Part shown: positions 10,630 to 39,700 of the stretch, piece by piece
Layout of the letters: each line of letters starts with the position of its first letter
Position numbering within the stretch: the stretch's first letter is position 1
NCBI GenBank assembly: GCA_905178155.1
Contig: CAJINV010000003.1
Coordinates: 3,441,600-3,505,599 of the forward strand
Direction of reading: 5' to 3'
DNA length: 64,000 bases
Source: Amoebophrya sp. A120
Taxonomy: Eukaryota > Protista > Dinoflagellata
Translations under genes and position numbers: made by a program
The notes under the pieces: model-generated
What the model saw: the letters and a program-made list of their open reading frames with translations, nothing else
Databases searched by the model: none
Told to the model about the DNA's origin: nothing

Positions 10630-11064
10630 GTTGCTTTTCGCTTGTCCTCTTTTTTTTTCCACGGCCACGCACTGATTTAGATTTTCTTCTCGATGAGAAG
10701 ATTAGTTTGTCATCGGGGGTTCCCGTTGCAATGCAAAATGCGGATTTCTAAGAGACAGTGCGCAGGCGGGGAACTGTCACAGGCGCCTCAAAAATGAACA
10801 TCTCGTCCAGACATCCGCTTGCGCCTGGGCATTGGTAATCATTAATTATCACACCTCCTCCGAGATTTTTGTTTCTTGTTCTACTTGGATCACATATTGT
10901 TGTTGTTTCCTTGTTATTTACTCACGCATTTTTTACTGTGCATGTACCTGTAACTGTATGTTGAAGATATGAAGAGGCAGATGGCAGAAAATGCCTACTT
11001 ACTTGCATTTTTTCGCCTACCACGAAGCACGATTAGATTTAATAGAGGAAGCGCAAACACTGGA

Positions 11065-12391: not shown

Positions 12392-13001
12392 TTTCGTTGC
12401 TCCTTGAAAAATAAGTGGACCGCGTCACTCTCAGAAAAATGAAAATGATCAACCCCACGCTCAATAACTCAATTGGGCTGCATGTCCATGCTCCATGTAT
12501 GAATTTTAGAAAAAGCTGCAAGAACCGTCGGACAGCAGCACTTTGGCCGAACCTTCGCTGTGAGCAGTAGCTGGCTCGTTGTCACCAGCACCTGCGCAGA
12601 AGATGCTCTAACACTTGCAAGAAGACCGTGCACTTCTTTTGCATGTCGTTTTGGATGTAGATGTACAGAGTCGCTTCAAATCGGATACAAGTTCCAAAGA
12701 AAAAATGTACACATTCATCATTCCAGATTAGACAAAAAACCCGTACCCTGTGCAAGATTAAACGCAGTTGACTTTGACATGTTTATCCTTAGAAAAAAAA
12801 CTTGCACGTTGTTCAACATTCAAGTACTGACTGTGACTGTAAAGGAAACAAAGGCATTGGCATGATAATATGCAGAAACAACAACTGGCGCCATGATATC
12901 AACCAAAAAAGTACCAGATTGAAAATTTTTGTTTGAAAATCTCTACCATGACTAGATATAGGTAAGAAAACCCATTATTTAATAGTATCCCGCAATAGAA
13001 G

Positions 13002-16036: not shown

Positions 16037-16898
16037 TGTCTTGCTTTTGTCCTGTAGCTGTATCCGATATCAAAAAACCTAGACCTACGAGAGAGAAAAA
16101 CCCTATTGCGTCACGTTCCCCTCATGGATAGTTCCCAAAAAACGCGATAGGTCTGCTTTGCCGCTGCAAATGCCTTGTTGTATCTACTTATACGTATAGG
16201 TCAAACTCAAAGGAAATAAAAAAATCTGCCCACGCATAAAAATCGAAAGTCTGCAACAACAAAAAACATTCACATTGTGCCACGAAGTTGAAACGTTTGG
16301 AACGACAAGACAAGTGCGCCTACTTTTATTTACAGACCCAAATCGATGACTTTGTTTTGAAACCGGCACCCCGAGATGAACAAAGGATAGTCCTAGCAGC
16401 ACCGACGAAATTTAGATGAGTTTCAGAAAAAGAAACACCCCCCAGAAAAAAAAAAAAGGATACTAGACGACTGCTTTGCCCGCCGATTGCGATGACGATG
16501 ATGCTTGTTTTGCATATTACTCTCGTTACACAGACACAGGTGTGAACAAGTGGTTTTTTGCCCCCCGTCAAACGAGGATAAATCGCGTGCTGCGTTTTTG
16601 ATCGCGCATAGCTGCAATGTCGGAGCTGTTGCAGCTGTACTGTGGTGGTCAATCCTACGTATTCGTACAGTATTCCAAATTCTTCTTTCTACTTCTTCGT
16701 CGATTTACTCTGATTTTCATTTTCCTTCGTGTTCGTCTTTTGCAGACTAGTAAAATAGGGGCAATGATGAAGGGCTCCGTTGTATTTTTCGAGAATTTAA
16801 GCATTGCTTAGGTCATCGCGTCTACTTGTTTTTGTCACGGTCGGACTCTATGAACAAGGTTCTGCACTGCATCGATATGCAGAAGTACCAGAACAATG

Positions 16899-19800
16899 TC
16901 AGGACAACTTTTTTTCGATTTTCGAAACTATCCCCTGCAACTGCAGCTCATTGCTTTTTCCCTTCGCGGTCGTGACTCTGTCCGGCTGACCGTGTATTTT
17001 GGCTCCGAATTTTGCACTCGGAGACGGGGCTTTTTTCGGTAGATCGACTTTTGCAGCGACTTTCGCTTGATGAACGCTGCTAATGGGTTTCTGCAAGTTC
17101 CCAACTGAAAGTGGTTCGTCGGCTCTTCCGATTACGATCCTGCTCGGGTCAGGCATCCCTGGTTTTGGAACGACCGTCTCGTTGGGCTCTGTGTGCGCCG
17201 CGAGCCCAGCAGCTGGCGCAGGATCATGCACAAAGGATTTTCTCCCTGCCTCCAACATAAAGGTGCGCCGATGGTTTTGTACAAACGCAGTAGAGCCTTG
17301 CTTTTTCTCAGTCGCGCTCGTCTTGGGTGGAGGTAGCGGCGCGCCCCCAGCCAGCTCCAACTTTTGGCCACTCGGGGCTGAGCCGGCAAACAAAAGACTT
17401 CCATCTTGTCCACTAGTCGCAACGGGTGAGGAGGCTGGTCTTTTCAGCGGTAAAACACGAGGACGCTGGGAGGACTTGCTAGTCCTCTGAGACATTTCTT
17501 CAGTAGGAAGGTCACCGGCAACGCGCGGGCCGGGTATCATCCCCGATGAGGTCATGCTCCCACCGGAAGCAGCAACACGCGCCCTAGCCACTGCACCTCT
17601 GCTTTTGCTGCGTGTTGCTTCGGATGTTGCCGGCCGCAAAAAAGCTTTTGCTGCATCGTGCACGACCTCTTCATCTGAACTCTTTATCATAACTTTTACT
17701 TTTTTCACGTCGCCACGGTTCGACATGATAGCTTTATTCGGCCGATCTCGATTCACACTGCTGGGCAAACGACTTGCACGCACGCTGGCTGCTTCATTGT
17801 GAACACCAGTCGCACCACCTGCCAATGTCCTCTCCATGTTTTCATCGATGAAGAGGTTTTTCCTCCTCTTACTTCCAGATCTAGACGCATCTTCCTCCCC
17901 CACGGGCGCTCCCATCATCCGATCAACGTCGTCTCCAAACTGGCGCAACAGCAACCGGTTGAAAGCTTGCTTCTGCCCCATGCCGAATAGGCGATCCCGA
18001 AGTTGCTGCCGCAAACGGGCACGCTGGGCGCTCCATCGGCGCTCCTGTTCTTCATCCGATAGTAGGAGCTGCTGGTGCGCTACTTTATTTCGCGGAAAGA
18101 AGCCTCCGGCCGTTCGTTCCCGAGCTTGCTGGAGGGTCTTTTCATGGTACGGTGCTTGCGACCACATTTTGGCCAGCGGTAAATTGTTCCCATTGCTGTA
18201 GTCCAGCGCAGGTGAAAGCAGATTGTCGTCGACTTCAAGTGCACCTTGTTCCAGTGATGATTTGTCGCCAGAGAGTGGACTACCCCCGAAGCCGTGCCAG
18301 CGCTTGGCTCCGGAAAAGCTGGGCGACTGCGCGGGCGACGCGCTGAAAAGGTCGTCAAGGTCAAAGTGCAGCGCACCGGCGGGCGCCCGGTCCGGAGATG
18401 CCGGAGTGTTCGGCAAGTGATCTCGTGCGGCACCATCAGCCCGGGCCGCGCTTACCAAGGTGCCGAGCTTTCCTTGCAGTCGCCCCCACAAGCGCTTCCC
18501 TCCCGCGGGCGATGACGCGGGAGAGGATTCCACAGTCCCAGCATCTTCCTTCGTGGCGGCTCCTGGTCCCAAAGGACTCCCCTGCTGTTGCGAAGGCAAT
18601 GACCTCGGCGATGAAGCAACAACGGAATTGCTATCCACATTGCCTCCCCGAGGTGTTGTACCAGCAGGACTAAGTTCTTTATTTGCCGTGGCAGAGGCGA
18701 TATTCCCCGTTTCTGTGCCAGTTGATGTCAGCAACGTGGTGCTTTTTTCGTGGGCGGAACGAATGTGCTCCACGGCCGTCACCAGTAGGGCGTGCAGTAG
18801 CTCCCGGTCTAAAACGGAGAGGCGGTCCATGTGCGGATGCGAACTGGCAATCGACTTGCGCTCCACCGTAGACTTGACTGCGGCCCTCGGAGAAGCAACT
18901 GGGGAAGTTGTTGTGGAGAGCGCAGCACCCTGAATCTTAGACTCCGCCACGTCGATATCGTTGCTTGGCTGCACAAGGGTGCTCAGTCGCGGGGCGAGAG
19001 TTGAAGCGCTTGCGGAGGAACTGGCCTTTTTTTTTTCAACACTGCCGGTATCTTTCGTTTGAGCGATGTCATCAAGTGGCTCCGGAGGCGCGGTCGGAAC
19101 CTCGACCCGAGTTGTCTCTGTGTCACCGGGTAAGTTAAGACTTAGTGACACGCGCCGGATCGACACGGATTGCGGGCGAAAAGTTCCGGAACAAGCCTCA
19201 TTTGCAACAATCTCTGTTGCCTCTTTTCCAGGCTTTTGTTCGACATCATCAGGATCAAGGGGCTCTTCGACCTCGTGCGTGGTGCGACGGGCAGCTTCTG
19301 TGTTTGTCTTTGTTTGCCGTTTAGGTGCGGCCGCGACCCACAAGCCGGATAAAGTCGCAGGTGTAACGACGGCACTTTCGTCAAATAAGGAGACGCGGCG
19401 CGGCGTCCGGCGCGTTGGTGACCAAGCAGCAGCCGAGGAATGCCGCCCGCGACCGCCCGACGAGGCTGCTACCTCCCGTTCTCGCTCTGCGTTCGAAACA
19501 CAAAAGCGGTGCAGGTCTGCCACGAAGCGAAAAAACTCATGAATGGTGTGTGCGTCGCTGCCGGTGGAGTGCAGGTCGAGAAGGTACTTCTTTCCCAGGA
19601 TGTTGTTCGCCTGCACACCTTTGATTCGACTTTTCTTTTCCAGCAGGTTTGCCAGAAAGGCCTGCTTGGATCGCTCTTCGTGGATGGCCGCGGAGTCTTC
19701 CATCGCTTCGTCGTCCGACTTCGAGAACACCACCTTGTTGGCGCCAAACACGTCTTCCCGACGCACTGTTTTCGTGGCGGCAACGAGTTCGTCCCGCTCC

Positions 19801-22800
19801 TCTTCGTCCTTCACAGCTTCCAATCGCTTATGCCGGTTGGGTGCTGTTTTAATATCCGCCTTTTTTCTGCTCGATGGACTCCGAGAGGTGGAGGGAGAAA
19901 CGCTTTTTTCCTTCCGGGGCTTGTTGCGGTGGTCGCCTGTGGTGTTTTTCTTGGCCTTCGCCTCGTCGCCGCGATCTGCACTAGCGTCAAGTTGCAGGTC
20001 TAGCTGAACAGCACGCGTACCAGCTGCGATCTCTGCCTCACTTGGAGCGGTTGGCTCATCCGGGACGACATCGTCGCCCTGGATCTCCCCTGGTAAAAAT
20101 GCGTTTCTCTTGATATCGAGGTCATTCGCAGACATTGACACTGCTTTCTGTCCTGCTCCCAGCAAGGAGCCGCCACCGTGCACCAACTCTTCGTGGCTTT
20201 GCCACAAAAGCTTCTGCTTTCGCACAATGCGCAGTGTTGGTAAGTTTTCCTGAAGAGCTGCGAATAGTGCCAAGTGCAGGCGGTCCCTAGCTGCGTCGCT
20301 ATTCTTTGACTGCCTTCTTTCAGCGTCTTTGTGATGCGCGTCAAAGTGTCCGAAAATCGTCAGCCGCGAGGCAGGCCGAGTTGCTGTGACCAGCTTTTGC
20401 GTAGTTCTCCTGGTGGTGCCCGGCGTTGCGACTGGAAAGGGTGAAGGAGAAGATTTTTTCAGTATGGACGTCCTTGGCTTTAGCTTTACAGAAGAAGACC
20501 TTGATACGTCGTCCTGCTCTTGTGGTGCTGGTGATGCATCATTTTCATTACGAGTACTCGTACCCCTAGGATGAATCTCATCATCCTCCTCCTCGTCTTG
20601 GTGCTGCGCCTCTTCTAGTCCATCTGCAGAGGACTGGCTCTCCGGTGTATTCCTACCTGATTTCCGAGCAGCTGTAGAGAATGCATAGCTGTGGTTTACA
20701 CGAGGTGCGACGTAGTTTTGAGGCGGGTGCTGCGCAAATCGTGCGGGTGCAGTTTTTGTTTTCACCACCGCACCATTTTCGTCGTGAAGATCGTCTTCCG
20801 GCACTGTCTTTTTTGAACTTGTTTGAGCTTGTAGCTGAAAGAAATCGCCTAGATCCAGAGAGCCTTCGTGGAACGCTAGAAGCTTACTTAGAGCCGTACG
20901 GACTTCTTGCAGCAAGCAGCGCAGAAACGGCACTGTGGAGGCCAGACTGAGAAACAGCTCCTCCGCCACAGTAGACTCCTGCTGCCCTGCGCTATCCATC
21001 CCACGATCTCGTCCCCGCTTGCTGCTCTGCCGCTTCAGTATCTGCCGGAGGCCGACGATCAGCTTGAAGACAAAGAGTAAGCTGAAGGACACGTCTAGTC
21101 TGGTTTTGCCACCCACCTCGAGGTAGCGGAAGTAGTCCACCCTGCAGAGCACCACGCACTCCGCAAAGGCAAAGCTGGCGGGCCGAATGTGCTCCGGAGG
21201 AGGAAGCGTCGAGCGAATACTTTTGGACGTCGCTCCAAACTTGTAGGTAAGCACAGCCGACGTCGGCGACCTTTGTTGAACCGGCGCCCCGAGACTAGCT
21301 TGGTCGGTCAGAGACTGCGCGTGCTCTTGGTCCTCGTGCCCGAGAACGTGTCTTGCCACGGTTTCCACGAATACTGTGCGCGTCGAGAGACGGCCCGGAC
21401 GCTCGCCACTTGTTGTGTGCTCGGTATGAGGATCGTTCGGCGCGTCCATCCCGAAAAACGTTTCCCAAAATTGCGCTCGATCAAAAAGGCGTCGCTCCGC
21501 CTCGCGCCGCTTGCCGCGCGCTTCACGGTATTTCTTGCGAAGCTTATCGGCCTCGCGCATCGTGTTGAAAGTCACCACGTGCTGCGCGCCACGAACTGCA
21601 CCGTGCCGCCGCGACCTGCTGGCTGCGCCGGCACCTGTTTGGTTGCCTTGCTGCTGCGCTTTCAACAGAAATACGCCGAAATCTGGCTCTTCCTCGGAGG
21701 ACGAGGAGGACGCTTCGTCGAAAAACACGTCTTCTTCGAACAAATTGTCCGTTGCAAGTAGTCCTTCTCGCAAGACCCTTGTTCGACGCCTACTTTTGGA
21801 CGAACGGCCCCCACGACTCGTTGTTGTAGTTCCCGGGTCGGTCAGCGTCCCGTCCAAGCCAAACGTCACTGGATGAAGAGATGCGCGCCGGCGCGCGCGC
21901 GACGAAAAGCCGAAGTCATCCTCTGCCTCGTCCTCATCTTCCTCGGATCTTTTGCCCGACAGCGTTCGGGAACGCAGCGCCGTGATGGCCTCCGTGTCGG
22001 ATTGCACGCCCTTTCTGCCGAGCGATCGTTTGACCAAATTGCGCAGAAAATTTTGCCGATGCCGCACGCCGAGCTTCGGAAGAAAGTAGGTCCCGTGCGC
22101 CGCCGCTGAGCCCAACCCCAACTGTTCGAGAGCCGCGGCGGTATCGCCTCCCTCCGAGGCAAAAGCGTCGTTGAGCAAGCGCGCACGCACATTTTGCTCG
22201 TAAGCACTCATCCGCCCGGAACGGCGATCGCCAGGCGAAAGGTGGCGGAGCATCGCACCGTCAGCGAATGCCATCACATCAACCTGCTTTACCGGCAGAA
22301 GCAAGTTGCGATCGCGATACCGCGGTCCACCTGCTGTGCCATGCAGATTCTGACCGGTCGAGTCGCCGTGCGTTTGCTGCTGCAATGCTGCGTCCGCGCC
22401 GTTGATGTGGCCGTACAGACGGAGATTTCGTCGCATCTCCTTGGCGCGGTCGATCAACCGCGACTTCCAAAACTGGCAGTAGGTATCCAGAGACGAAATT
22501 CGCCGTGTTAACTGCGTTTGTTCGATGCCGAACCGCTTTTCCTGCTCGCTTTGCAGCTCCGGCGGTCCTTTCGATAGCTTGTTCGCGAGCTGCTTCAGAC
22601 CGTTTGCGTACAACCACTTCCGCAGCTGAGTCCATTTCTTCTCCCTGCGCTTCTGCAGCAATGCATTTTTCCGGTTTGCTTGGTTCAGACAGCGCTGCAT
22701 CTCGTCCAGTCCGGCATCCGGGTCCGCTTGCTGCAGGAACCGTGGCAGCTTCTTTGTCTTGCGCTCCAGTCGCTTTCGCTTTTTCAACAGCTTTTTCCAT

Positions 22801-25800
22801 TGCAACTCCAACACGAAGCACTCCTCTTGAAGCTCTTCGTTGACCTTTGTCAGCTCTATCTTGCGTTCGCTGAACGTGATTCGCGCATTCAGCAGTGCCA
22901 AATGCTGCACGACCTGCGTTCGTTCCGCTTCTTCCTTATCACGCAACGCGTTCAGCTGTTTTGTGTGTTTGGGAAGATTATCGAACCAGCACGGAAATCA
23001 TGCAATGGGAAAAACTAACCAAGCATCGCACTACCGTAGCTCGAACAAGAACGCCTACGCCCAGGAGCGAGAGCGGGACAAAACGTAATAAATGCTTTCT
23101 ATGTGGTGGTCAACATCCTATGCACCTTTCTGAGCTCGTGTTCTGCGTTTTGCAGTTTGTTGCGCCAGCGAAAGACGTCGTCCTCTTTGAGGAGAATTTC
23201 CTCTGATTTGACGACCCGCTGCTTCCGGCGCGATTCGGTTTCGCGAATCTCCTGGGCCCGCTTCTGCAACTCCTCGCGTTTCTTCGCCAAAAGTTCTTGG
23301 TCGACCGTCACTTGCATGGTTTCCAAGTCCACGACGCACATGGTCGTAGTTGCACTCAGCGTTGCGGAGGACCCGCGCCTCGCGGCATCCGCCTGCTCCA
23401 CCGCCCCGCTTGCTTGCCCTGCAACATCATGAGAAGCCGCACTGGTCGTGCCCGTCACGTTGTTAAATTCGTCAACCGCAGCGAGCAGCAACTCTCGCTG
23501 CGCCTCGAGACGCATCGCCGGCGTCATGCTCATCGCCTTGGCGCCTGGCTCCGGGCTGCTCTGCCCTCGTGGGACGGCCGCCAGGCGCTTTCGGTTCCTC
23601 TCTTCCTCTCGGATTTGCTGCAGCAAGGCCACGTTGTACTTACTGTGGTCCCAGAACAGGAGCTCGTCGGAGACGTCGTCCGTCATGTTATTCAAGGCTT
23701 CCTCGATTTTCTTCTTTTCCAGCTGCAGGAGCTGCCACTTTTTCCCGAGTGCCGAGTTGAGTCCGTGGTTTTGCAGACCGTTGGCGGTAGCGCTTTTCAG
23801 CTTCTTGGCAATCTGGCGCGCCATGTCGGCGAGGCTGGTCTGGGTCTCCTGCAGCTGCTTTTCCACTTGCTTCTTCTTGATCTTCTGCGTCGTCCACAAC
23901 TTACGTAGACCCGCAAATTTTGGGTCCGCAGCTACGCGCTCGTTAAACACGCCGTCGCCCAGCACATCGTTCGCGGAAAGCACGCCCAGTTCCAGCGGCT
24001 GGGACCGACTCTGCTGCGCGGCTTTTTCGGCATCCTTCTCGAGTCTGGTCCGCCCCATTGTAGTTCCCTGCAGCAGTTCTCCCGTAGTTGGGCTTCCGAA
24101 TGATCCTGCATCTTCTTGCTCTCCGGTGTAGTCGACCTCCCCGTGCTGGCCCCCGCGCTTGGAAAACTTACTTTTTTGAAGATGCGCGGCAGTCTTCGTC
24201 TTCACTATGGAGTGTATTTCCGAAACAAAGTCCACCCGCTCAATCTTCTCCAGTTGGGCTAGCACCTCAGCGTCCTCGGTGTTTTGCGGGGCACTTGCTG
24301 TAGTAGTACTCAGTGCGGTTTCTCCACTCGTCTCCGCCTTTTTGTCCCCCTTTTTCATCAACTGATCCTGTTTTGAAGCTCGTGCTATTGGCGCAATCAC
24401 TTTTTTCTTGATTCTCTGACCAAATTTCTTCGTGGTCGGCCCGGTGCCTCCTTGCTCTTTGCCGCTCTCACTAACGCCTTCGGCGCCGTCCTCGTTGTCG
24501 AACAAATCGTCGTTTTGTTCACGGATCTGCTCCACTTCGCGGTAGGCCAGCTGCAAAACGTTCGAAAACGTGGATAGCTTTTTGCGCACGGCAAATTCGT
24601 GTTGGTTCAGAAAGTCCAGCGCCTGCTTCTTCACTTCTTGGTTTAGCGAAGTACTTCCCTCCATCTGCAGCGCGCTGCGCCAACTGGCGTCGAGAAAGTC
24701 TCCGACGGCCTTCCCACTTTCGCTGTTCTTGATGGCGGACACCTGCTGCAGATAGGCTGCCTGGGACTCCGTCAGCTCCTGGAAAAACTGCATCAGTTTT
24801 TTCTGCACGAGGAAAAAGTCCTCCGCGAAGGAGCGCGCACTCATTTTCATCCGCGGGCTCGCGTTCTTGTTGGTTGTTGTATACGGCGGACCCTCTCTGT
24901 TCGCCTGAAGCTGTTGCTGCCGCTGATGCCAGTAGTCACTGGTTGCCAGCGTGGTTGCTCGTGGCGGCCTAATCATGTTATCGGGACTTGGAGAGGTGGA
25001 CGTCGCGCCTGTCATGTTAAAAGGACTTTGCGGTGAAAGAGCAAGCCCATGCCCGCCTCCCGGTCTGCTTAGCGAGAACTTTGGCCGTGCTGCACTGGGT
25101 CTCGAGCCCAGAATACTCGCACTTTTCATTTGCGGCGGAGGAGAGCTGCCGATGACACTTTCGCGTCGTAGCCTCAGTGTTGACGAACTCGGACGATTTT
25201 CTGTGCTGCTTCCAGGCGTCGTCGGCGCTGCGATATTGCTCCCGTTACTTGGGCGCTGCGGGGGCGGTTCCTGCATGATACTTCGCCGGCGTATCTGCGT
25301 GATCCGCTCTAGCTGCAGAAGGGCACGCTTTACAGACTGCGCCGACTGGAAAATTCGGAGGTACACTTTGTTCAGACTTTCTTGCTTGTCCGCAGCACTT
25401 CCAGTACGCTTCTTCTGCTTCTTCGCCTTTTTAGACGACTTTTTGACTTTTGTCGACCCCGCCTCGCTTGAAGATGAGGCGGAAGACGAGGAGCTGGACG
25501 AGGAGGCTTGCGCGTCCACGAGTTCCGGCGCTTCCAAAAGCAAAATCGAGTACGCGAGGGAACATTGACGTATCGAGTCGAACATACCCTGCGTGTAGAG
25601 CTTTTGATTTTTCTTCCACGGGTGACCAGCCGTTCCAAACTTCAAGGGCTCGTAGTTGTTCGCCAGTGCTGTGCTTCCCCCCACTCCAGCTCCGCCGTGA
25701 CGCGTCGAGAATCGCCCTGCCGACGGCGACGTTCCTGAGACACGCAGGATGCTTCGATGTTGCGTTTTGGCGGCAGTGGCGCCGCTAGTCGCGACCTGCG

Positions 25801-26821
25801 CTTCCTGCTCCATGGCCGGACGTTGCGCGAGCTCCTCCTCCCACTGTCTAAGAGGATCGACAACGTGGACCGCTTTTCGTTGTCTGGCATTTGTTGCAGA
25901 TGGAAGATTCTCGATTGCGCTTTTCATCTCTTCCGCCCCCTGTGTCGCGCCACTCGTCCCAGCCGTCGCTCCTGGAGAAGCCGGTGGTCCCTTGACGTTA
26001 GCGTTTGCGTTTGTGTTGTAGTGCAGTAGTGTTTTACGAGACAAAAAGTCCCTTCCGAAGCGCACCGCGGATCCTGAAGGCGTGCTGTCTGCTCCGTCCT
26101 CGCGGAAAGTCGCCTTTTTCCCAACATCGAGAGCATCGACAAAATCCTCGTCCGCATGGCTTGTGCGCGAGACAACAGTCGAACGGCTTTTGCAAATACC
26201 TGCGCCATTATCTCCACCAAGTTGTTCCTGTCGTCGGCCATGAACATTTCGAGACAACGGACCAACATTTGACGAGGACGATGAGGAGCCAAAGCTTGAA
26301 GAGGAGGAGCCTCCACTCTTTTCAGAACCGGATGAAGCATCCGACGAGGAAGACGCCGATAATTCGGATAACTTGAGCTTGCCTTTTTGCTGTTGTTTTT
26401 TCTGCCTCCTGGTTTCCTCGACCTCGCGCCGGGCGTTCTCGACAAGCTCGTCAATGCGGTCCTGCACCTGAGCAGCCGCTTGCTTCCTCCGTTCCTCGAG
26501 GGCCGATTGGACGTCACTCTTCGCAGCACCATCGAGAGATCGGGCGTTTGCTTGGACCCCCAGGACCCCCGTGCTCGATCGCGATGAGATTGGCTTTGCT
26601 GGTCGCGGTAGGTAAGATTTATTCGCGTCTCTGTTCTCGCCTGCGTGTGGTCCGCGGTGTGCAATGAAGGAAGAGCCGAAGCCTAAATAGCTGGCCTTGT
26701 TGGCCGCAGTCTTCTTTGCGGATGAATGACCGCGGCGCAGTGGTACTTCGTCGTAGAGAAGCAGTGGCTGCTCCGAAGCCTTGTTGCCAACTCCAGAGCC
26801 CCACTTTTCTCCGCTGTTCAT
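16899..26821 (-). CDS. Giant hypothetical coiled-coil/low-complexity protein (about 3,250 aa, 2 exons)
   Basis: ORFs 23099-26854 and 16899-22946 join via a phase-0 GT-AG intron 23125-22956 (AAG|GTGCAT...AAAACAG|CTG), giving the continuous coiled coil EHELRK-LNALRDKEEAER. First in-frame ATG at 26821. Confidence 0.75.
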
Positions 26822-27695
26822 GTTCGAGATCCACCGGGAAACAAAACATCCCAACGAAGTACACGAAAAAACGAAGCCACCCTTTTGGAAAGCACCAGAT
26901 GAACGTCGACGATCACTTTCTAGTGCTCAAAAGCAAAAACCTAGATTATGTCTGGTAGGGGGTCGGTTTGGAAAGTGAAAATGCAACTGAAAAATAAGCC
27001 GATGATCGATCTTGGATTTGCAAATCTGTACCTGTTTATCTCCAAAACCGTCAGTAAGACATGGCCACACTTGAGACGGAACAGAAATGCGACCACAAAC
27101 CGATGTGTAGCTGCATTCGCGACTGTTCTGTTAGGGCCATCTCAACCCGCGCTTTGTGCATGATCAAAATTCATATTGATATTCAAATTCATCGCTATCT
27201 AGATAGCAATCACGGAATCACGCTGCTTCAGGTTCAGTCTTTCATCTGGTCAACTCAGCATTTGTCACTTATGACAAGTAGATTATTTTTGAATGGATGA
27301 TGACAATCTTCGGAAACGTATTTCCGAAAGCGAAACCGAAAACGTATTGCCGAATAAGCATACACGCATGGCATGTGTTAGTCTTATTCGCTTTCCTGAG
27401 AAAGCCAAAAAGTGAGAGAATGTAGTTGTTCACACGGAAGAACGGCGAGGCCGTTTTGTTTTTTCGAAGGTCGAAAATGAATGTAAGCAGCTCACAGTAC
27501 TATATATAATGACCCACACGTAGTGGAATCTCGTACGGTGGATATCGTTGTCTTTTGTGGAGACCCCGATCTCCTAAGCACTAACGCGCTCGCGTGAGAG
27601 CTGTGTGAGGCCCCCGACAGCTACGGCGCGCGGCCCGGCATACGTAGTGGAATGAGAATTTTTGAAATGGTATATGAGATTGACCGTGGTCGAAC

Positions 27696-29716
27696 TTAGC
27701 TTTCTCCCTTCCCCTTACCCTTCCCTTTTCCCTTGCGCTTCCCCTTGCCCTTCTTTCCGCGTCCTTTTCGTCCCCTGCGCTTCGTTTCCCCAGCTTCGGT
27801 GGAGCCGCTTGGCAGCGCAGTGGAGCCGCTCGGCAGCTCCATATCCCCCGGTACGATCTTCTGCGTACCAGCGAACAGCGGATCCTTCTTTTGCACGTTC
27901 GGGTCGCCCGAGAGCGGAACTGTGTTTCCATACTCATCCTTGACGGGCGCGTGCTGCACTAGCCATTGTGCGCGTTTGATGCTTTTGATGAAGTCGCGGG
28001 AAATGTCGTCGTCTTCGTGTGCATCGGTCTTGGCTCTGCGTACGAGATTGACAAATCGCACGGGATCCCACATTGCCGCTTTCAAATGTTTTTTCACAGT
28101 TTCGACTCCGCATCTCGGGATATGCGCACCGTTGTAGTCGTTCCCGATCAACAGCAGCCCAAGTGCGATTTCGCGCTGGTACGGAAAAATGTTCTTCACC
28201 CGAATTCGTTCTTCTTGCGCTTCGGATTTCGGAACGTCGCTTCCGCCGATACCCGTCACGCGAACGCCAACGAAGGGATTGTCGCCTGCCTGCAATTGAG
28301 ATGTACAAGCAACACGAATACCGAGCTTGAGGCGAAATAAGCAATGAAGGTATACATCAACTACATGTTGATCAGTTGTCACTGCAGAGACAAAACTCCA
28401 ACTGGTGATTTCTCGCCGTTTCTATTGGGTGCAGTTCAGCATTACTTCACAAAGGAGTACCCGACGGCGCTGTGGCAGCCGGTCATCTGGTGCCAATATG
28501 AATTCGACCGTCGAGCCCACACTGCAATTCTTGAACCCCGCCTGCTTCACATTGGACGCGTGAAAAAACAGTGTCTTTCCGCGGGCGTTCGAAGGAAGCT
28601 TCTTACGCGTTTCAGTGCATTTGATAAACCCGAAACCACCCTGCTTCTTACTGGCAGCAGACGAATACTTCCAAAACGTAATCACACCTGGACAGAATTT
28701 TTCTTTGGCTGTAGAGTCAAGTTCTTGTGCTGGCTCTCGAGGTAATGCTGAGTAAAAAAAAGGCGAAAGCGAGTTTGAGAATGAGGTTCACATCGAGCCA
28801 CCTTCGTAGACGTCAGAGTTTTTTGTCGGCAAGAAACTATCGACCAGGTCCGGACACTTCTCGTAGTCTTTCTTCAAGTCGATGAGCGTCGCGCGAATGT
28901 CGTCTTTGTCGGACCCCAGCCCCTCCGCTTGTCGGAGCAGCGGAATCTGCCACAAAAGAAAGTCGGTGTCCTCAGCGAGAACAGCATCTATCTTCTCGTT
29001 GTTGAACAAGTAAACCAACTGATGGTCTGCTTCGTAGGCCGCAATGATCGACGAATTGGACCGCACCTGAAAGAATAAGAAAGAGAAAATGCATCAGATC
29101 ACCGGAGAAAATGAGAAAATTGCGGGACTGAAGAGCGAATTATATCGAAGTCGAACTTGTTCCATTCGAGGTTCGCAACCACATCATCCATCGCTAGCGA
29201 TATTAAGAAAATCATTTTGCCTGGATCTGGTCGCGGTTGTTAATAACTTGAAAAACCAAATCCAAAACTTAAACTTACTTGATTCAGTGCCTTCCTACAT
29301 TCTTCCACGATGCGTTCGTCACAATCGAACGCTTGAGCAAATTCTTTCTTGTCGAACGCTTTTTGCCGCTGCTCCTTGCGTTTTTCGAGACAGTCGGACT
29401 TTTCCGGTAAGTCCTTCCCGTCGAACACCGTCACAACGGTCTTCTGCGTTTTACGCGCAATGCGTTGGACCACCTGCGAAACGTAACCCGCAATCTCGCT
29501 CCGAACTTGCTGTGCCAGAGCTGCGTCCGGCGATTCTCTTGTTGCCTTCACGTACTTCTCCTTCAACTTCGCCGGAACGGTCTTGTGAATGAGCGCATTC
29601 CCGTCGATTCCCAGACGATGAATGCCGTGAGCACTCAGTTCCTTGCTATTGAGCGTCACCTGCTTCTCGCAAGGCTGGACGACCTTGAGGAAGTCGGATT
29701 TTTTTCCTCCGCCCAT
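27696..29716 (-). CDS. EXO1-like (FEN1/XPG family) 5' nuclease with an inserted cold-shock domain, about 507 aa, 4 exons
   Basis: Exons 29716-29279, 29066-28802, 28687-28461 and 28289-27696; all introns GT-AG; total 1524 nt in frame. Motifs: LGIDG..LIHK, VFDGKDLPEK, AAYEADHQLVYL, AVLAEDTDFL, H3TH LLIGNDY..HIPRCGVETVKKHL. Cold-shock domain YEGVITFW..GGFGFI..TLFFHASNV..VEF..VRVTGIGG. Basic (GK)n tail. An alternative exon-3 donor 15 nt downstream (GAA|GTAATG) is also in frame. Confidence 0.85.
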
Positions 29717-30756
29717 CTTGATTTTTGGTTGCGGAGGGGACTCTGCCCCTCAACTGTCTCTCTGCCTGTAGCTCGCCCTCTAACTTTGAACCAGGTGGTG
29801 ATCGAATTGAGATCGAAGTCTTACGTCCCAAAGGAAACTTGTTTGTGGGCGCCAGTTTTTTTTTTCGGGTGTCGCTTCGCTGCCCGTCGTTTTGTGGTTC
29901 TACTTTTCACGACGAAGGCACACAATCGAACAACCACGGTTGATGGTTCCCATGCCACAGGCAGGCTAAGACCTTGACCCGGAAACGGAAACAGGCCGGA
30001 CCTTGAGACACTTAGTCTGTCATACTCATATGCTAAATTGCGAGCTCGAAGATTAATTTTCAACGCATTATTTGCATAGTTTTGCTGTATTCATTCGTTC
30101 AGATGGTGTACATCGTCAGAAACAGGTACAGTGCGGCAGTTACTCGCACGGAATAGGAATCAAACTGCATTTTTTAGTAATAAAAGCGTTGACAAACTCT
30201 TCCGTAACACAATTTGTCCAAAGAAAGATCTTGATAAGCTAGAATTGTCTATTTTCAGTTCACGTTTGAAGTGAATGACATAACATTTTCACAGAAACGG
30301 TTTTTGCAGGCTCTCGCCTGAGCGACGTGCAGAAACGCGATGTCCAACGTCCGCGGGTAATCTTCCAGGATCCGCCGACGTCACCATCGCCTACTGCAAC
30401 GCCACTCTGCAGCTCTGCACGTTCTCGGTTTTTCTAATGCAAACAGATACTAACAAACTAGGATTTTTTTGGTCTGAAATTTCACGATTCACGTTTTTCT
30501 CGATAGCTAATTACATACTAGTTTCTTTTTCGGATTCGGCGAATCACGTCTAGCGCTATGCTAGCAAGCATATAGATACCATAGCAATTTCGAAGATTCA
30601 TGATTTTTTCCTGTTCAAGATTGTAAATGAGAAGATTGATCTGAAGTATTTCAAGAAACCTATTTGCGTAAACTCTACTGTTTGAAGATTTTTCTCTGTT
30701 TTCGTCTTGTTTGAAGATTTTCTGAAGCCTGGAGCACTTTAGTAGAAGCAGCACTC

Positions 30757-33700
30757 TTATTCTCCCTTCAGGAAGAAGATCCACGGCGTCTGGATCTTCG
30801 CCGACGTGACCACGAGCCTGCTGCCGACGGGACTGGACCCAGTGAAGTCAACACCAACGGACACGGACTTCCCTCCTTCGATCTTCTGCTTGTTGGGTAC
30901 CTTGAGCGCGAAGTCGTTGGGGTTGTCGATTTGAAACGTGAAGTCCTCTGCCTCTTTGAACGGGTTTCGGAAGTCTATTGAAGCGGACTTGGAAACCACC
31001 ACCGGGCCCTTGGCCTGCGGTGGCTGCGAGTAGCCCGCCAGCATGGTGCGGTATTCGGTGCCGGTCTCTGGGCTGGTGACCACGAGAACCGCCCGCATCT
31101 CGGCCAGCTCACTGGGTTCGTACTTCACGTCAATGCGCACCTCCGTCGGACCCTCACCCGCCTTGATGTCCTTGGTCTCGATCTGGAAGTCCTCCAGCCT
31201 ACTCGCGGCGCTGCTGGAACTGCTGCCTGCGGTAACAGAGAGTGTCGTGTGGGACTTGTACGTTAAAGGATGTGAGTATTAAACTACAGTACAGAAAAGA
31301 AATGTCGATTGATGCACATGCACGTCTACTTCAACATCGTCGCCGAAAAACAAAAACATCCCTGGTCATACCACCTCCCTGCGGCAGCTCGACTTTTGCG
31401 GTGTAGCCGGTTGGTTTTTTCCCGAGGTGCGTGAACCGGAAGGTTTCCGTCACCGACGACCCCAGTGGTGCCTTGAAGACGAGCGATTTTTCCATGCCGG
31501 CTGGCGTGGCCTTGTATTGCACCTGGTAGGGGTAGCTGCCGAGTTCCGGGCACTGGAGCACCACCTCGCCCTCCCCTTCGCCCTCGCCACCCGAGGGTCG
31601 GAAGCACACGTCCATGTACACTTCTCCGTTCTCGGGCACCTCGAACGAGGGTCCGTGTGGGGCGAAGAAGATGTCGGGTATGGTGGACGTGCACGTGAAG
31701 GTGACGGGTTTGGACAAGGGATTCGCCACCATGATGGGCCACTTCGCGGTTTGCCGGCACGCGGTCTCGAACTTTATCACGGCCAGGGACTTCGGCTCGG
31801 TGAATTTGAACTGCACCTCGACCTTCATGAACTCGCCCGTGGTCGGGTTCTCGAATTCCGCGAGCACCAGCACCGTGGCGACGCGGAACGCGTAGACCTG
31901 GAATTTGTAGTCCCGCTTCAGCTTTGGTGGCAGGTCGAACAGCTCGATGCCCTGAATCTTTACGGCGTCCGCTTCTTCGCTGTTCGGTGCTGGGTCCAGG
32001 AGGGTGAGCTTCACGTTGAACCGTTGTCGTTGGTTCAACCAGTTCTGCAGCGGAATGGCTTGCACGTGCGCCGTCTTGCATGGAACCTGAAAAACGTTGA
32101 GATCAGAATTTTTGTGATCATCAACAGGTAGTGTTTGGATCATCTCAATGATTTGTGTGGTCTGCATCTGCTGGAGAAATGAAGGACCCCCACTGACAGT
32201 TAGAAAGAGAAAAATGAATTTCGATCATCTTTAACTATCTTTCGATGATCTTACCTCGACTTCTATTCTCTGGTCCAGAGTCGGTGGGTCCGCGCGGCCC
32301 TCCAACTGGTAGACGTAGGCCTTGCCGTCCGGCGTGGCGATGAAGAGGCTACCCTTGTGCACGTCCTTGATGACGGTGCCGTCGTCTCGGACGTCGTCTG
32401 GCTTCGTCATGGTCAATGGTTTGTAGGTCACGTCGATCGACGCGGTCTGGTTGGGCTGCAGCACCACCTCGGACGGGCAGAAAAAGAAGCCCGGTGTCTG
32501 GTCTGGTGGGTAAATAGTCATCACCTCGGGTTTCAGACGCCAAGCAGAACTGATGTTCACCGCGTTCGGCGGGAATGTTATGCTCTGCACCTGCTCTTTT
32601 CGCACCTCCGTCTGGAAGTTCAGTGTGTGCACGGCGTCCGATGGCTGGGCGATGCAGCGACCTGACGAGTAGTTTGTTCTCGTTGCGGCGTGCGCGTGGT
32701 GCAAGTACATACCAAAAAACTATGTCATTCAGATGACGATGCTGAGACAAAAAGAAAAACACAATCGCGCCACATTGCCATTCCTGAAACAAAAAGTAGC
32801 AAAATCAATGTTTTTGCTGCGTATCACTTACCCGTGAGACTGAGTCTTATCGGTTCGTGGTTGTCCAACAAGCAGACGATATTTCCACAGGTGATGTCCC
32901 TGTCTACGACCTGCTTCGGGCAGAATGAAATCTCCAGCACTTGATCGTCGTGGGGTGCCACGTACCCGGACAGCGGCTTGATGAAGAAGATGTCCTGAAA
33001 GCGTGCGGGGATTTCGAATTTGTATTTTGACCCCAAGTCCCCGAAGTTGTGCAAATGCACCTTCTCCGACGCGCGGCTCTGCACCACCACGGGCGGGAAC
33101 AGCACGGAATGCTCGGAGAGCTTGATTTCCGTCGCGTGGCATTCGCCGCACACGGTCGCCAAGTGAATGGTCTCGCCCGTCTGGATGCACTGCACCGTCA
33201 GCGGGTACTTGAAAGGCGCTACGCGGAACTGCGGATTGAAAGACAAATCGATCGGGCACTGCTCCTTCGGCCGCAGCGTGATTTTGTTTTCCCGGGCGAG
33301 TTCCTTGGACGTTTTCTGCTTGCCCGCCGTGCTGGCGAATGACGAACTTGACGAGGACCCGCCCATGGGCGTCTGCCAGCTGACCGAGCGGTCCTTGAGC
33401 CTGTCGTCCTGGTCGATGATAAAGAAGTCGCAGGGGCAGGGCGACTTGTTGATCAACTTGATCGCGCGCCGGATCGGTGGCTTGTTGCCGATCGTGACGC
33501 CGAAGTCCACGGTCTGCATGTCCATGGACACCAACTCCAGCTTCAGCGGCGTGCCCTTGCCTCGCACGTTGACGTAAAATTTGGTGAAGTCGTTGATGAT
33601 GAACTCGATGCGTTCCCGGTACTCCACGCTGTCGCGCGGCTGGAAAATCACCGGCACCACCATGCTCTGCCCCGCCTCGATCATGCTCTGGTCCAGCTGC

Positions 33701-36700
33701 ACGTCCAGGTACGGCGTTCGCTGGAAGGTGGTGGACAGCAGGCAATCGGAGACGTCGCGGTTGGTCACCACGAGGTCCACCTTTTTGAAGCACTGGTCCT
33801 TCTTCGAGCCCATGGAGTCGCCCGCCACGGTGGCCCCCGCGCGCTTGTCGATGAAGCAGTAGCCGAAATCGTAGTTGTGGAACGAAAAATCCACCTGCGG
33901 TCGTCGAGCCCTCCCGCTCAGCTCGACAAGGTAGCAGCTCTCGTCCACGCCCCCGCGGTTGGGCCCCTGTCTGGCACTGGGGATCAGCAGCTTCAGGATG
34001 CAACCGTCGAGCGTGTGGCTCTCGAGTGGTGCGTATTCGACCGTAAATTCTACTTCTCCCTCCTGTGGAGCGACGCCCTGCATCTGCGAAATCGTCAAAT
34101 AGGGTGGTAGGGCGGCCGACCGCCTTGCTTGCGTGGAGCCGTTGTCCGTGAGCTGTGTTTTTTTTTCATGAGAGCATTGTCGCAGCTACAGGTTTGTCCT
34201 CCAATAACTTTCCAACTCTGTCGAAGAACTTGCACATCAAGCGAACACAGACATGAAAACCTAAAACCAGAAAAAACCGCAGCAAATAATACCTTTTTGC
34301 CCTGGTAGATGATTTGCCAGACGAAGTCGAAGTTGAAGGAGCCACTGTTTTTCAAAACCAGCTTTGCTTCTCTTCGCTCGTGCACCTGCAGGTTGCTGCC
34401 GAAGTCCACAATTTCCTTGACGCCTGGGTGAAGCAAGCGGTCCATGCTCTCCTTGACCAGGAGCTGCGCGTGGATCTTGTAGCCCTCGCCCTTCACCTTG
34501 AGTGCGAGCGGTTGCTCTTTTCTCTTCACTTTGCAGACCACGTTGTAGGACACGGCCTCCTCGATAGCGGGTCGGAATAGCACATCCACCGGGAAGCTGC
34601 TGTTCGGGCCGACCACCCCCTGTTCGGGCGAGATAAAGATGGTCGGCGCCTTGACCAGCGTGTCCATCGGGTTCGCCTCCACGCCCTTCGGCTGGTGGCC
34701 GTAGCTGGCCTTGTCGAAGTTGAACGAAAACGGGATGTGCTCCTTGTTTACGATGTAGAGCGTCTCGCGGGCCTTGCCGCCCAGAAGTAACCTGCCAAAG
34801 TTCAAGAACGGCTGCTGGAACCCCACCCTTGGTTCCTTCACGTGACCAACGACCAAGAACGTCTGCTCCACCTCCTTGCCCATCACCTGGAAGACCCAGT
34901 TGCTCTCGTGCGAACCCATGGACATGGGAACGTACTCGAAGACCATCTCGAACTTCTTGCCTGACAAAATGTGCCCGTGCTTGGTCAGACACCGGAACGG
35001 GCTGCCCGCGGCCTGCTCCTCCTGTTGGCCCAAGCCCCCGCCCCCGCCCGAGGCGCTGGACGACTCCTGGTTGGACCCACCCTCCTTCTGCTTTTGCGTC
35101 CAGATGAAGTCGTAGGACTCGCCCGTCGGGTTCAGAACGTAAAATCTCCTGGTGTTTCGCACCCTCGTACCCAGTGACGGCGGGAACTCGATGATCATGC
35201 ACTTCGGATCGTCGTTGGTCGCGCTTTGGTAGTTGCTCGGCGGCAGCTCGAAGTGGCACAACGGTCGCACCGCGCTGCCGTTCAGACTGATCGTGTGCAG
35301 CGGCACCTGTGATACATAGAACATCAACAGCGCTAAAAGATGAAAGTTCAAAATTTACTAGCCTTCATACATTCATTGCACTGCTGCACTTCACCAATGT
35401 TCTTTCCGATTCTCGTTCTTCAACTTCAAGGCCAGCAAGACCTCCAGCAACAGCTACAAGCATAGAACAAACAAGAGAGAACAAAACACGGGTAATTTCG
35501 TCTAGGTGTAAGTACCTTGAACGGGACTTCGGCATCTCCGTCCTGGTAATCGATGAGCGGATCGCCGTCGGACGTGATGGCGGACCCGTGTGGCACGTAC
35601 ACGGGCGAGGTTTTGCCGCTCGGGTCCCCGAACACCTGGTGGCGAAAGGTGCACAGCTGCAGGTTGGCTCGGAAGTCTTCCACCTCCGTCGGCTGAAACT
35701 TGATCTGGAACTCCATAGAGCCGTCGGTCGGAATGATCCCGATCTTCGGCGTGATCTCGTAGTTCTTCTTGCTGCTCTGCAGGTTGTGGATCTTCCACTC
35801 GTAGGGGAGCGAAATCATGCTGGAGTTGCGCACGGTGAACGAGAAAACCTTTGCGCCGAACATCATGGTCGGCGCGAAGTGGATCTTCTCGGTTTCGCAC
35901 TCGAACCCGCGATCGTCCGCTGCGGCCGTGATTTTCAGCGGCATCTCGCGATTGCTCGGTTCCTCGGTGTCGTTTCCCTCCGCGTCCTTCTTCGGCAGGA
36001 CCACGTGCGACGGTTCCTCCCACACCTTCTGCACCTTTCTTCGGACCTTCTGCGTCGGGTAGCGCGGCTCCGCGGTGTCCGGGTCCTCACCGTCTTCGAG
36101 CGGTAACGGGTCGGCGCCCTCGATGGGCTCGTCGACCTCCTCGGTCACGTAGTAGGTCATGCTGTCGTCCCAGTCGAGCAACGGCTTTTTCCCGCCGGCT
36201 GTGGACTCGTGCGAGATCGATCGCCCATCCGACGTCTGCCGCAAGAACGGCATGGTGGGCTGGCTCTCGCCTCCGGAGGGAAGCGCAGCTCCTGCTGCGC
36301 CGTCATCGTTCTCGTTGCCGGAGTCCGGCGTGGAAAACTCGATGTCCTGGATCTTGCACGGAATCTCCACCAAGTCCGCGGACACCTTCTCCACCGGCTG
36401 AAAGTGCACCACGATCTTTTTCTTCGATCCCGGGGGCACGTGCCCGCAGGACGGAGAAAACCTCAAATTCGGATTACTGAAGCTTTCGGCCGCCTCGGCG
36501 GACAACGCGAACGGCGCGGGTAGTGTCTCGGGAAACTCGAACCGCACCGTTTTCTTGCTCCCGTTCTTAAGGTAGATAATCTGCTGCTTGCGACTGCCCA
36601 CCGGAAGCTCGCCGATCCCGAGCTCATCCGGGGGCGCGGGTGGCCGCACCTTGGCCTGACGACCGCCGTCTTTCAGCGGATAGGGTGGGTCAAAGGGTGA

Positions 36701-39700
36701 AATTTCTGGCGACAAATCCAAGTCCAAAAGCTCGTCGTCGCGGCCGGACTGGTTCATCAGGTCCCAACACACCTCTTGCACGTAGCCCTCGCCCTTCAAT
36801 GCGAGCGTCACGTCTTCGAATGGGTTGTGGATTGTGTATACCCGGAACTTCTGCAAGAAGTAGGGGAGCTGTACGCCATCATCCGGCGGGCTGATGTCAC
36901 ACGGGTGGAACTTTGCAGTGAACTGATAGTCCTTACCGGGCTCCAGATTTATCGTGCTCGGACAGATCACGGAGAAGTGCGGAATAGTGTCCGTGACTGC
37001 GATGCCTTCCTCGTTCAGGATCTCGCACCTTGCCGTCGCGGGTATGATCCCGTCATTCTGAAGGCGGAACTGAATTTGATGCTCGCGACCGAGCTGCAGC
37101 TTGCCAAAATCAAACTGTCCGTCTGTCAAAGCGTCCACGCCTTCGAGCGTAATACTCGGCACCGTGCCATCGCCGCGCATCTCGAACGTCAAGTAGTTGC
37201 TGCGCGGGTCTGTTCCGTCCGTGACCTTCGCCTCGAAAATGGCGTAATACGTCTGCAGCTGCGGTGGGGCGAAGGACACGGTAACGTACCGGTGCTCGTG
37301 CGGCGGAATGACCAGCTGCGCGGGCTGGATTTCAAATGGAAAGTCCTTATCGCCCGCTGCGGATCGCGGCTTGACGCTAATGTTGACCTCACATGGAATT
37401 CCGCGCGGATTCGTGATTCGCAGCCGTTCCTTCTGGGGTTCTGCCCCGCCGGCCAGGCAGGGACCGAAGCTGAAGACCCGATCCTCCTCCGCGTAGCACC
37501 GGATGTCCACCCGACCGGCGGTGGCAATGGCGTCCTCGAGGTTGCGTGCCACGTACTGCTCTTCGAACACCCACTGCATGTTCGTGTCAATTGCAGGTAC
37601 GCAGGACTGCGCGGTCAGGAGGTAAACCAACGCGTTGATGTCCCCCACGCGGATTTGGTCCGCCATGTTGGGCTCCACGCCGGCGACCCAGAGCCCGAGC
37701 TTCTTGTCCTCGTCGCGATCCCCGTTAGCCACGAACTTTACGGTAATCTTCGCCGTGGACTTCTCCCCGTCTTCGGCGACCGGATCTAAAGTGCCCATCG
37801 CGGGGGATACCTCGAACGGTCCAATTTGCACGGTATCCTTGAAGTACTCGCCCGGCGGTCGGGCCAGCACGCTCGGGTCCACGTAGCGCTCGACCTTCTG
37901 TCTCCCCGGGCTGCGCGGACTGCCGCGCTGCGACCGCGGCGACTTCCCGCCCTTGGGTGATCGCTCCGCGGCTGCCGCCACCTCCGTGACGCTGGGGTCC
38001 TGCATGATCTGGTTCAAGTCGACCAAGGCCCACTCGAAGGCAAACACACCGTCGTTTCGGATTTCGAACGTTCGCGTTTTTGGGTCGGCGCCCGATTTCA
38101 CCGGACCAAAATTGAGGCCGCGCGGTGGCGTCACGGTGAACGCGTTGTACGCCGCCTGGACGGACAGTCGGATAGGCGGAATGGCGGGCTCGACGCGTTC
38201 CATAGAACGGGCTTCGAAAATCTTCAAATGCAGCTCCGGGGCGTCAACGATCCTCACTTCGCGGAACGAAACGGCGGAGACCTTGATCACCCGGCGCTCG
38301 TCCGGCGCGATCTCCACCGCCCGGCCCACCTCGTCCTTGATGGACAGAATTTCCATGATGGACCGCTTTTTGATCTTAAGCTCGTACTTCAACGGATACT
38401 TGCCATGGTTCACGATTTCGAACTGCTCCTCCTTGGTTTCGCCGACCCGGAGACTGCCGAAGTCCAGACCGCGCTCGTTGGGTGGCGGGAACACCACCCC
38501 GACGTCTACTTCGAAGCACTCGCCGGAAACCTCTACTTCGCAGGGAGGCAGCTCCACCGCGGAGTGCTGGATCTTGGGAGCCTCCTCGCCTCGTGGATTT
38601 TCTTGCTCGAGCTTCGCGAGACCGCTCGAGTAAAAACCCTCCGTGTCCTGGAGAGCGAAGCGGAGCTTAAAGTTGTAGAAGTTCGCTTTGGTGGCTTTGA
38701 AAACGACCTTCACGCGCACCGTTGCCCCGGGTGTGAGAATCCCCTCTTTTGGCTCGACAGTGAACTGGGGCGGGACCGTGTACTCTAGTTCTTCCGGCGA
38801 TGGCTCGGGCGGCGGGTCCTCGCCGTCGATCGGTGTGACGTCCTTGCCGAACTTGTTGTCCACCTTCCAGAAGACATTCACGGACCCCGGGTTCGTCAGC
38901 GTCACCTCCCGCACGTCGCTCTGCCGCAGCATCAGCTTGTCGAAATCCATAGACGCCGCGGACGCCTCCAGTTTCGGGATCGTGCCGGTGGCGGTCAGGG
39001 GGATCACCGTGCATTCCGGGTTGTCGTCGATGGTCACGACCAATTTGTCCGCCACGGTACCCTCCGTCGTCGGGAAGCACCACACGGTGACCTCCCGCGT
39101 TTCGTCCTGCTGCAGCTCCAGCACCTCTGGCGTGACGCAGAAGGGGTAGGTCGAGAAGTCGGCTTTTGGGAAGGGCAGCGCGGTTTCAACCGTCGGCACG
39201 AGGCCCTCGTACGTCTCGGGCGTCACGGACTCCTGACCCGCGATCAAATCCTTCGCCTGTTTCAACTTTTCCGCGACGGATGCTGTGGTGCCCTCCACGG
39301 TTTGCGAGGACGCGAGACAGAAAAAAGCGCGCAGCGGGAACAAGCTGTTGTTCGTGATCCGGAACCGCTCGACGTGCTTGCGTAGGAAAAACAGCTGGTT
39401 GTCCTTTTCTTGTTCCAGTTTCATGGCCGCGCGGCGCTCGGCGCGCTCCTCCTCGGTGAGGGGGACCTTCTTGGCAACCTCCTCGCCCGTCGCGGTCGAG
39501 GACTGGTCTTGCCAGGACTCCCGCGTGCTCGTAGATTTTGTCGTCAAACCGTCAAACGCGCTGAAAACGTAGCCAGTGTTTTCGCGCTCCGCGATCTGCC
39601 GGTCCAGCCCGAGGGCGAGTCGTTTTGACACCTGCAGCATTTCCTGAGTGAACAAATGCCGCGCTTCCGCGTCCTTGCCGACAAGCAGCGGTCCGAACTC

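Follow-up and report, generated by a model that had tools for sequence, protein, structure and literature searches.

The window, that is, the whole 64,000-nt stretch of DNA from the marine parasitic dinoflagellate Amoebophrya sp. A120 that was analyzed, contained on its minus strand a four-exon gene predicted to encode an EXO1-type nuclease with a cold-shock domain (CSD) inside its core. Joining the four exons gave 1524 nt, corresponding to 507 amino acid residues and a stop codon, without an internal stop codon. The features of the gene were as follows.

29279..29716, minus strand: exon 1 (aa 1–146), XPG_N region with D38, H44, D99, gateway K106/R113, and the shortened helical arch
29067..29278, minus strand: intron 1, 212 nt, GT-AG, phase 0, absent from the X1–X4 contigs
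28802..29066, minus strand: exon 2 (aa 147–235), XPG_I region with E158, D160, D179, D181, beta-pin 189–208, two short helices, and the start of the insert
28242..28811, minus strand: inserted cold-shock (OB-fold) domain, aa 232–326, across exons 2–4, from Pfam and structure models
28688..28801, minus strand: intron 2, 114 nt, GT-AG, phase 1, within the first strand of the insert, absent from the X1–X4 contigs
28461..28687, minus strand: exon 3 (aa 235–310), CSD strands 1–4 with W240, RNP1-like F253/F255, and RNP2-like F275/F276/H277
28290..28460, minus strand: intron 3, 171 nt, GT-AG, phase 0, absent from the X1–X4 contigs
27696..28289, minus strand: exon 4 (aa 311–507 and stop), CSD strand 5, linker, H2TH with D361, EXO1-type C-terminal helices and hairpin, and basic tail
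28077..28184, minus strand: H2TH region, aa 346–381, D361 corresponding to human EXO1 D225, from alignment and model, without a Pfam match
27699..27785, minus strand: basic K/R/G tail, aa 479–507 (16 K+R and 10 G of 29 residues), low pLDDT, with a shorter copy in strain A25

One contig from each of X1, X2, X3, and X4, which are probable RNA runs (their RNA nature was guessed, and they are assembled contigs, not reads, from two samples of one study), omitted exactly the three GT-AG introns, in agreement with the original prediction that four ORF fragments are spliced through canonical introns into one 507-residue frame. Exon 3, whose loss from transcripts or location in a separate CSD gene had been raised as a concern, was retained in all four spliced contigs, and its omission causes a frame shift. 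A single unspliced contig of X5 extended across positions 27612–30100. The raw-read RNA runs X8–X10 contributed no reads at this locus and do not bear on the splicing. An in-frame alternative acceptor at position 28748 is present in the DNA and was used by no contig of the runs examined. The spliced product was letter-for-letter equal to P0001 (CAD7939991.1), an unnamed protein of Amoebophrya sp. A120, for which the spliced gene model already exists in NCBI/EukProt with precomputed PF00313 and PF00867 assignments. In X5, depth over positions 27572–27641 of the 3′ untranslated region was elevated, with additional short contigs and loose ends, which suggests a repeat with copies at other genomic sites. 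This segment was single-copy within the 64-kb window and was flanked by a 15-nt direct repeat (27515–27529 and 27639–27653).

The neighbors in the window were ordinary eukaryotic genes, and seven of the 18 long ORFs scanned had Pfam matches. Directly upstream, positions 30757–49492 of the minus strand were occupied by a multi-exon gene of very large size that encodes numerous HYDIN/CFAP65-like Ig domains, and its transcript contigs extended down to approximately 30022. An RRM-containing frame (8623–10701) and an aldo/keto reductase exon (11651–12424) were located on the same strand. Seven long minus-strand frames of 587–2032 aa (5877–7856, 13565–16069, 16899–22997, 23099–26926, 51430–56850, 56860–58983, and 59324–61087) gave no Pfam match at E 0.001.

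Nuclease core and its affinity to EXO1

In P0001, Pfam matches above the respective cut-offs were obtained for XPG_N at residues 21–120 (23 bits, cut-off 22) and XPG_I at residues 153–193 (28.5 bits, cut-off 24.9). In P0002, the orthologue from strain A25, XPG_N scored 20.1 bits, just below the cut-off of 22. The top solved relative in a single-sequence PDB search was human EXO1 (E 5e-5). An AlphaFold2 model built from a 30-row alignment had a mean pLDDT of 74.9 and a pTM of 0.70, and residues 1–471 of this model were aligned to residues 2–357 of the human EXO1 chain (PDB 5UZV/7MXW), including the C-terminal core, at about 20% identity. The match to human EXO1 had a Foldseek E of 8e-12 and a Z of 29.4 (rmsd 3.0, 309 residues aligned; Z 28.2 in another comparison), whereas the values for other family members were up to 22.6 for FEN1, 20.1 for XPG, only 17.5 and 15.1 for GEN1, and 14.7 for Xrn1; the folding alignment consisted mostly of EXO1-like rows and may have biased the model toward EXO1, which was also first in the PDB search that is independent of this alignment. 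The EXO1 affinity proposed in the original prediction was therefore upheld.

The acidic active-site motifs had been described as intact, and all ten motifs named in the original prediction, those of the CSD included, were found at their places. The seven acidic metal-site residues (D38, D99, E158, D160, D179, D181, and D361) and G2 were present in both A120 and A25. The residues equivalent to human EXO1 G2, D30, H36, D78, K85, R92, R96, E150, D152, D171, D173, and D225 were identical in the two strains, as read across alignments from which E150 was also numbered, and these include the gateway Lys and Arg of helix alpha4 (K106 and R113). Two model helices, 346–358 and 372–381, flank D361 and could be aligned to the H2TH of EXO1. 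No Pfam family matched this part in the whole protein or its ORFs, and the H2TH assignment therefore rests on the model and alignments. Of the predicted domain order XPG_N, XPG_I, CSD, and H3TH, the first three were recovered with Pfam in that order, and the fourth had no Pfam counterpart.

Several positions differed from human EXO1. Y32 was replaced by N (N40), E89 by L/H (position 110), and R95 by Q/A, and the basic residue that follows the H2TH hairpin in most homologues was missing by eye in both strains. Y32 and E89 are conserved in 10 eukaryotic Exo1s according to the sections consulted of PMC7993637, from which the roles of residues in the Exo1 active site and gateway were also taken. 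The spacing between the second and third acidic motifs was 60 residues, compared with 72–75 residues in 42 of the 62 homologues measured (66 rows examined, four not measurable). The arch was approximately 13 residues shorter than that of EXO1, and it was equally short in eight other homologues of the 62. The model contained a single arch helix (104–122) without the second arch helix, or cap helix. Three environmental proteins, P0005, P0006, and P0007, formed a small clade (SH-aLRT 96) of compact EXO1-like proteins of 354–392 aa with the same shortened arch and without the cold-shock insert.

The C-terminal tail consisted of 55 residues, unlike the long tail of canonical EXO1, and regular expressions for PIP and MIP matched neither P0001 nor P0002. 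The basic segment of the tail could possibly serve in nuclear localization or nucleic-acid binding. A weak Pfam match to XRN_N was located over the first motif (E 0.0026, 17.6 bits, cut-off 22.9). Membership in the XRN 5′–3′ exoribonucleases was rejected on the basis of this sub-threshold score, the Z of 14.7 versus 28.2 for EXO1, and the far shorter protein. Judged from the model and the alignments, the gene product is a predicted member of the Rad2/XPG family with an EXO1-like core that lacks two canonical EXO1 features, the full arch and the long tail.

The inserted cold-shock domain

The insert comprises residues 232–326, a 95-residue domain, and is followed by a 19-residue linker, at a position where, in EXO1 homologues, the first H2TH helix begins after just a few residues. 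The original prediction placed a full CSD between the EDTD motif and the H3TH motif, where EXO1 has a short beta-pin/linker; the insert was found there, but the beta-pin is retained (strands 189–194 and 204–208), and the insert follows it and two short helices. The Pfam CSD profile matched residues 249–301 of P0001 with E 2e-5 and 24.8 bits, below the 27-bit cut-off, and matched the ORF of exon 3 alone with E 4e-7 and 30.2 bits, above the cut-off. The scores for P0002 and P0003, an environmental fragment, were 26.0 and 26.6 bits, respectively, against the same cut-off.

A domain-only model from a four-row alignment formed a five-strand barrel with a pLDDT of 73.9. Compared with 48,161 solved chains, the insert was most similar to Unr CSDs, with Z of 7.0 (rmsd 2.5, 68 residues aligned) and 6.9, and an exosome S1 domain, CspB, and Lin28 were no more than one Z unit from them. 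Foldseek gave no match for the insert alone at E 0.001. Because Z did not exceed 7.0, a level that S1 domains reached equally, and the Foldseek search was negative, the structure alone indicates an OB fold and not a CSD specifically. The Atlas structure rows for residues 180–365 all aligned to CSD (six of six). RNP1-like F253/F255 lie on the second strand and RNP2-like F275/F276/H277 on the third, both matched in P0003; W240 and these five residues were identical in A120 and A25. The consensus for RNP1/RNP2 was taken from the sections consulted of PMC12787238. The fold is thus that of an OB domain, which is identified as a CSD by its RNP1/RNP2-like motifs and by the profile match, in line with the predicted presence of a CSD/OB fold at this site. 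Region 303–346, where the insert joins the H2TH, had a pLDDT below 50.

At the junction occupied by intron 2, the ORFs of P0003 and of a second environmental fragment, P0004, continue without an intron. Acquisition of the CSD by exon shuffling as one cassette was rejected, as far as is visible, because introns 2 (phase 1) and 3 (phase 0) both interrupt the domain and differ in phase, and P0003 and P0004 lack intron 2. In the Atlas, the structures nearest to the insert included two clusters, one of giant-virus proteins of 116 aa that consist of a stand-alone CSD and one of type III CRISPR RAMP proteins, in which 68% of the members have CSDs.

Distribution, paralogy, and origin

P0002 consisted of 495 aa with the same layout as P0001 and 69% identity to it; between A120 and A25, the insert was 72% identical and the nuclease parts were 71–73% identical. 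The average orthologue identity between Amoebophrya strains is given as 48.2–51.2% in the consulted part of PMC7789003. A HMMER search of 1.84 billion representatives gave 76 matches, among which, besides P0002, two unnamed environmental fragments span the junction between the nuclease and the insert, P0003 (56% identity) and P0004 (38%). The XPG_I acids were kept in both. P0003 contains XPG_I and the CSD in a single uninterrupted ORF and had the sole CSD match among the 75 scanned. P0004 contains XPG_I, strand 1, and RNP1, followed by an apparent intron read-through. In place of its final 16 residues, another frame fits 13 of 15 RNP2-region residues, a value reached in none of 10,000 shuffles, and its contig therefore likely contains the next exon.

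The lineage-specific setting that had been proposed was consistent with these results, as the same architecture was found in strain A25 and otherwise only in the two unassigned environmental fragments. The insert was found in no named protein outside Amoebophrya (30 proteins with names looked up). In word-based homologue searches, the 331 longer and 7219 near-length candidates yielded P0001 and P0002 alone, and the 48 shorter ones yielded none; these are weak negatives. Pattern matches to related loci in metagenome contigs (592) and viral contigs (139) yielded no confirmed locus, likewise as weak negatives. When metagenomes were scanned with a degenerate motif, 11 loci were obtained, and each was rejected as a chance match because stop codons surrounded the motif.

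Strain A120, whose paralogs were sought through protein databases, also encodes a conventional EXO1, P0011 (1055 aa), with a long tail, normal arch spacing, and a PIP-like match. The CSD-bearing gene is hence an additional paralog. The original prediction that the long EXO1 tail had been replaced by a short basic tail held for the basic tail itself, but the cell has not lost its long-tailed EXO1, since P0011 is retained. In a quick tree of 66 rows built without named FEN1, XPG, and GEN1 references, the CSD-bearing gene stood on a long branch without clear placement. A clade with P0011 was not rejected (p-AU 0.83), which fits a lineage-specific duplication without showing one; the unconstrained quick search had overlooked a better tree. 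As for a viral origin, Atlas clusters of giant-virus XPG/G5 proteins reached only 0.83–0.85 (lead level), matches to viral folds, at best E 3e-9 and TM 0.39, were weaker than that to EXO1, and the neighbors are the HYDIN-like gene and other eukaryotic genes; a viral origin was thus unsupported.

Proposed function and relation to known systems

We propose, with slightly better than even confidence, that this second EXO1-type gene encodes a stand-alone 5′ structure-specific nuclease in which the cold-shock insert would hold a DNA substrate by its single-stranded arm. The two-metal 5′ nuclease core is predicted to be active, as argued by the retained set of catalytic residues, and would cut at the junction of single and double strands, one base into the duplex, while the insert grips the 3′ overhang or gap strand, which is left uncut. 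The side of the beta-pin is where a recessed-end substrate carries its single-stranded overhang. In FEN1, the beta-pin, which lies just before the insertion site here, contacts template and upstream DNA according to the consulted part of PMC6265464. Judging from the family, bases may stack on the RNP1/RNP2 aromatics without sequence specificity, giving greater affinity or processivity on long or hairpin-prone single strands. Sections of PMC12787238 describe non-specific binding of ssDNA and RNA by dinoflagellate CSDs, and those of 10.1101/2021.11.30.470623 describe assistance by the Dis3L2 CSDs in initiation and substrate retention. Because the long tail and the PIP and MIP motifs are missing, the enzyme may not need recruitment by PCNA or MutL, with the CSD and the basic tail providing the grip. 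The short cap-less arch and the changed Y32 and E89 would make it a less canonical threader, possibly acting as a gap/flap endonuclease rather than a long-range resector. The earlier suggestion of a nuclease tuned to ssDNA, RNA, or RNA:DNA flap substrates seems reasonable.

A shift to RNA or RNA:DNA hybrids, in which the enzyme would remove RNA primers, R-loop RNA, or structured RNA with the CSD as an RNA chaperone as in RNase R/Dis3L2, is the main, though less probable, alternative. The retention of P0011 for conventional DNA work would free the paralog for such substrates, and the weak, sub-threshold XRN_N match lies over a first motif of the form D-x-N-x-x-I-H, presumably as in XRN1. In the parts of PMC12787238 that we used, CSDs are described as mainly RNA-binding with a preference for RNA/ssDNA, and RNA as competing efficiently with DNA for dinoflagellate CSDs, the latter of which favors an RNA role over the DNA reading; stimulation of EXO1 by ribonucleotides at the 5′ end is also described (PMC7303207, in part). 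However, the fold is far nearer to EXO1 than to Xrn1, the duplex-binding H2TH motif and EXO1-type C-terminal elements are retained, and the basic tail suggests a nuclear protein. A bolder version, which we consider unlikely, is a Syndiniales-specific fifth Rad2/XPG type, namely an EXO1 duplicate with a cap-less open arch and an internal CSD that would act as a 5′ nuclease on RNA or RNA:DNA hybrids, melting and cutting structured RNA without PCNA or mismatch-repair partners.

The changes at Y32, E89, R95, and the H2TH basic residue, the shortened arch, and the long branch would also be compatible with a nuclease-dead or weakly active nucleic-acid-binding scaffold whose function is carried by the CSD. 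We regard this as improbable, considering that the seven acids, G2, H36, K85, R92, and R96 are invariant between strains that are about 30% divergent, and that P0003 and P0004 also keep the XPG_I acids. Sections of PMC6176090 describe some Amoebophrya strains as infesting the host nucleus and digesting it, and the gene has so far been found only in the Amoebophrya lineage and the two unassigned fragments, both of which would suit a feeding or effector nuclease that aids digestion of the host nucleus. This role is very improbable: the protein has no hydrophobic N-terminal stretch (best nine-residue hydropathy of 0.56 in the first 30 residues and best 19-residue window of 0.94), and members of the family need G2 as a free N-terminus within the active site (PMC7993637, in part). 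Neither the gene ids nor stage-resolved expression could be found in 10 supplementary files of PMC6176090 and one of PMC7789003. An artefact of the gene model or assembly that fuses a nuclease gene and a cold-shock gene is effectively refuted: the spliced evidence consists of assembled contigs from two samples of one study, but one contig per run covers all four exons, the unspliced DNA contig is continuous, A25 has an independent orthologue, and P0003 joins XPG_I and the CSD in one ORF.

The FEN1/EXO1/XPG/GEN1 nucleases share one common core and gain their specificity from small add-ons. To our knowledge, the established example of a complete additional domain in these nucleases is the chromodomain of GEN1. 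GEN1/Yen1 thus resemble the present protein in carrying an additional nucleic-acid-binding domain on a Rad2/XPG nuclease and, as far as PMC5039027 was consulted, in having an arch without the cap helix alpha5, whereas the GEN1 chromodomain extends the core C-terminally and the OB fold here is inserted inside. RNase II, RNase R, Dis3, and Dis3L2 are likewise nucleases with CSDs that help to engage and hold the substrate (10.1101/2021.11.30.470623, in part); unlike the present protein, they have an unrelated RNB catalytic domain, 3′–5′ polarity, and N-terminal, not inserted, CSDs. Fusions of S1/cold-shock OB domains are also known in bacterial LK-nucleases (PMC2848206, in part), which belong to the DUF88/NYN-like class with OST-HTH and are end-to-end fusions without a FEN-type arch or H2TH.

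The cold-shock domain is the commonest annotated nucleic-acid-binding domain of dinoflagellates, and its roles there are poorly known. The insert shares RNP1/RNP2-like motifs with this family, which is expanded in dinoflagellates, and differs in its longer loops between strands 1–2, 2–3, and 4–5; the four architectures in Table 3 of PMC12787238, a 2026 review consulted in part, lack a nuclease (CSD; CSD+GR; CSD+GR+ZF; RRM+CSDn+RRM). A literature search of mostly open-access reach found no FEN1/EXO1/XPG nuclease described with a CSD. The terms 'cold', 'CSD', and 'OB-fold' do not occur in the main text of the PIN-superfamily classification (PMC5499597), nor do 'nuclease' and 'cold' in that of the Amoebophrya genome paper, and that of a preprint on Amoebophrya spore types does not mention EXO1. 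The original remark that no CSD-in-EXO1 architecture was known is, within the reach of this search, consistent for a CSD inside the FEN1/EXO1/XPG fold but does not extend to the pairing of a CSD with a nuclease; because such joins are known in other families, the novelty lies in the host fold and the internal insertion. New beyond the earlier reading are the status as an extra paralog beside a conventional EXO1 and the lack of the arch cap helix, Y32, E89, and PIP/MIP.

The protein ties a dinoflagellate CSD to a predicted enzyme, with a narrow known distribution. As a natural 507-aa EXO1-type enzyme with an internal single-strand-binding domain and a short arch, it offers a compact test of how substrate choice and processivity may be rewired, and its insertion site marks a loop within the nuclease core that tolerates a folded domain.
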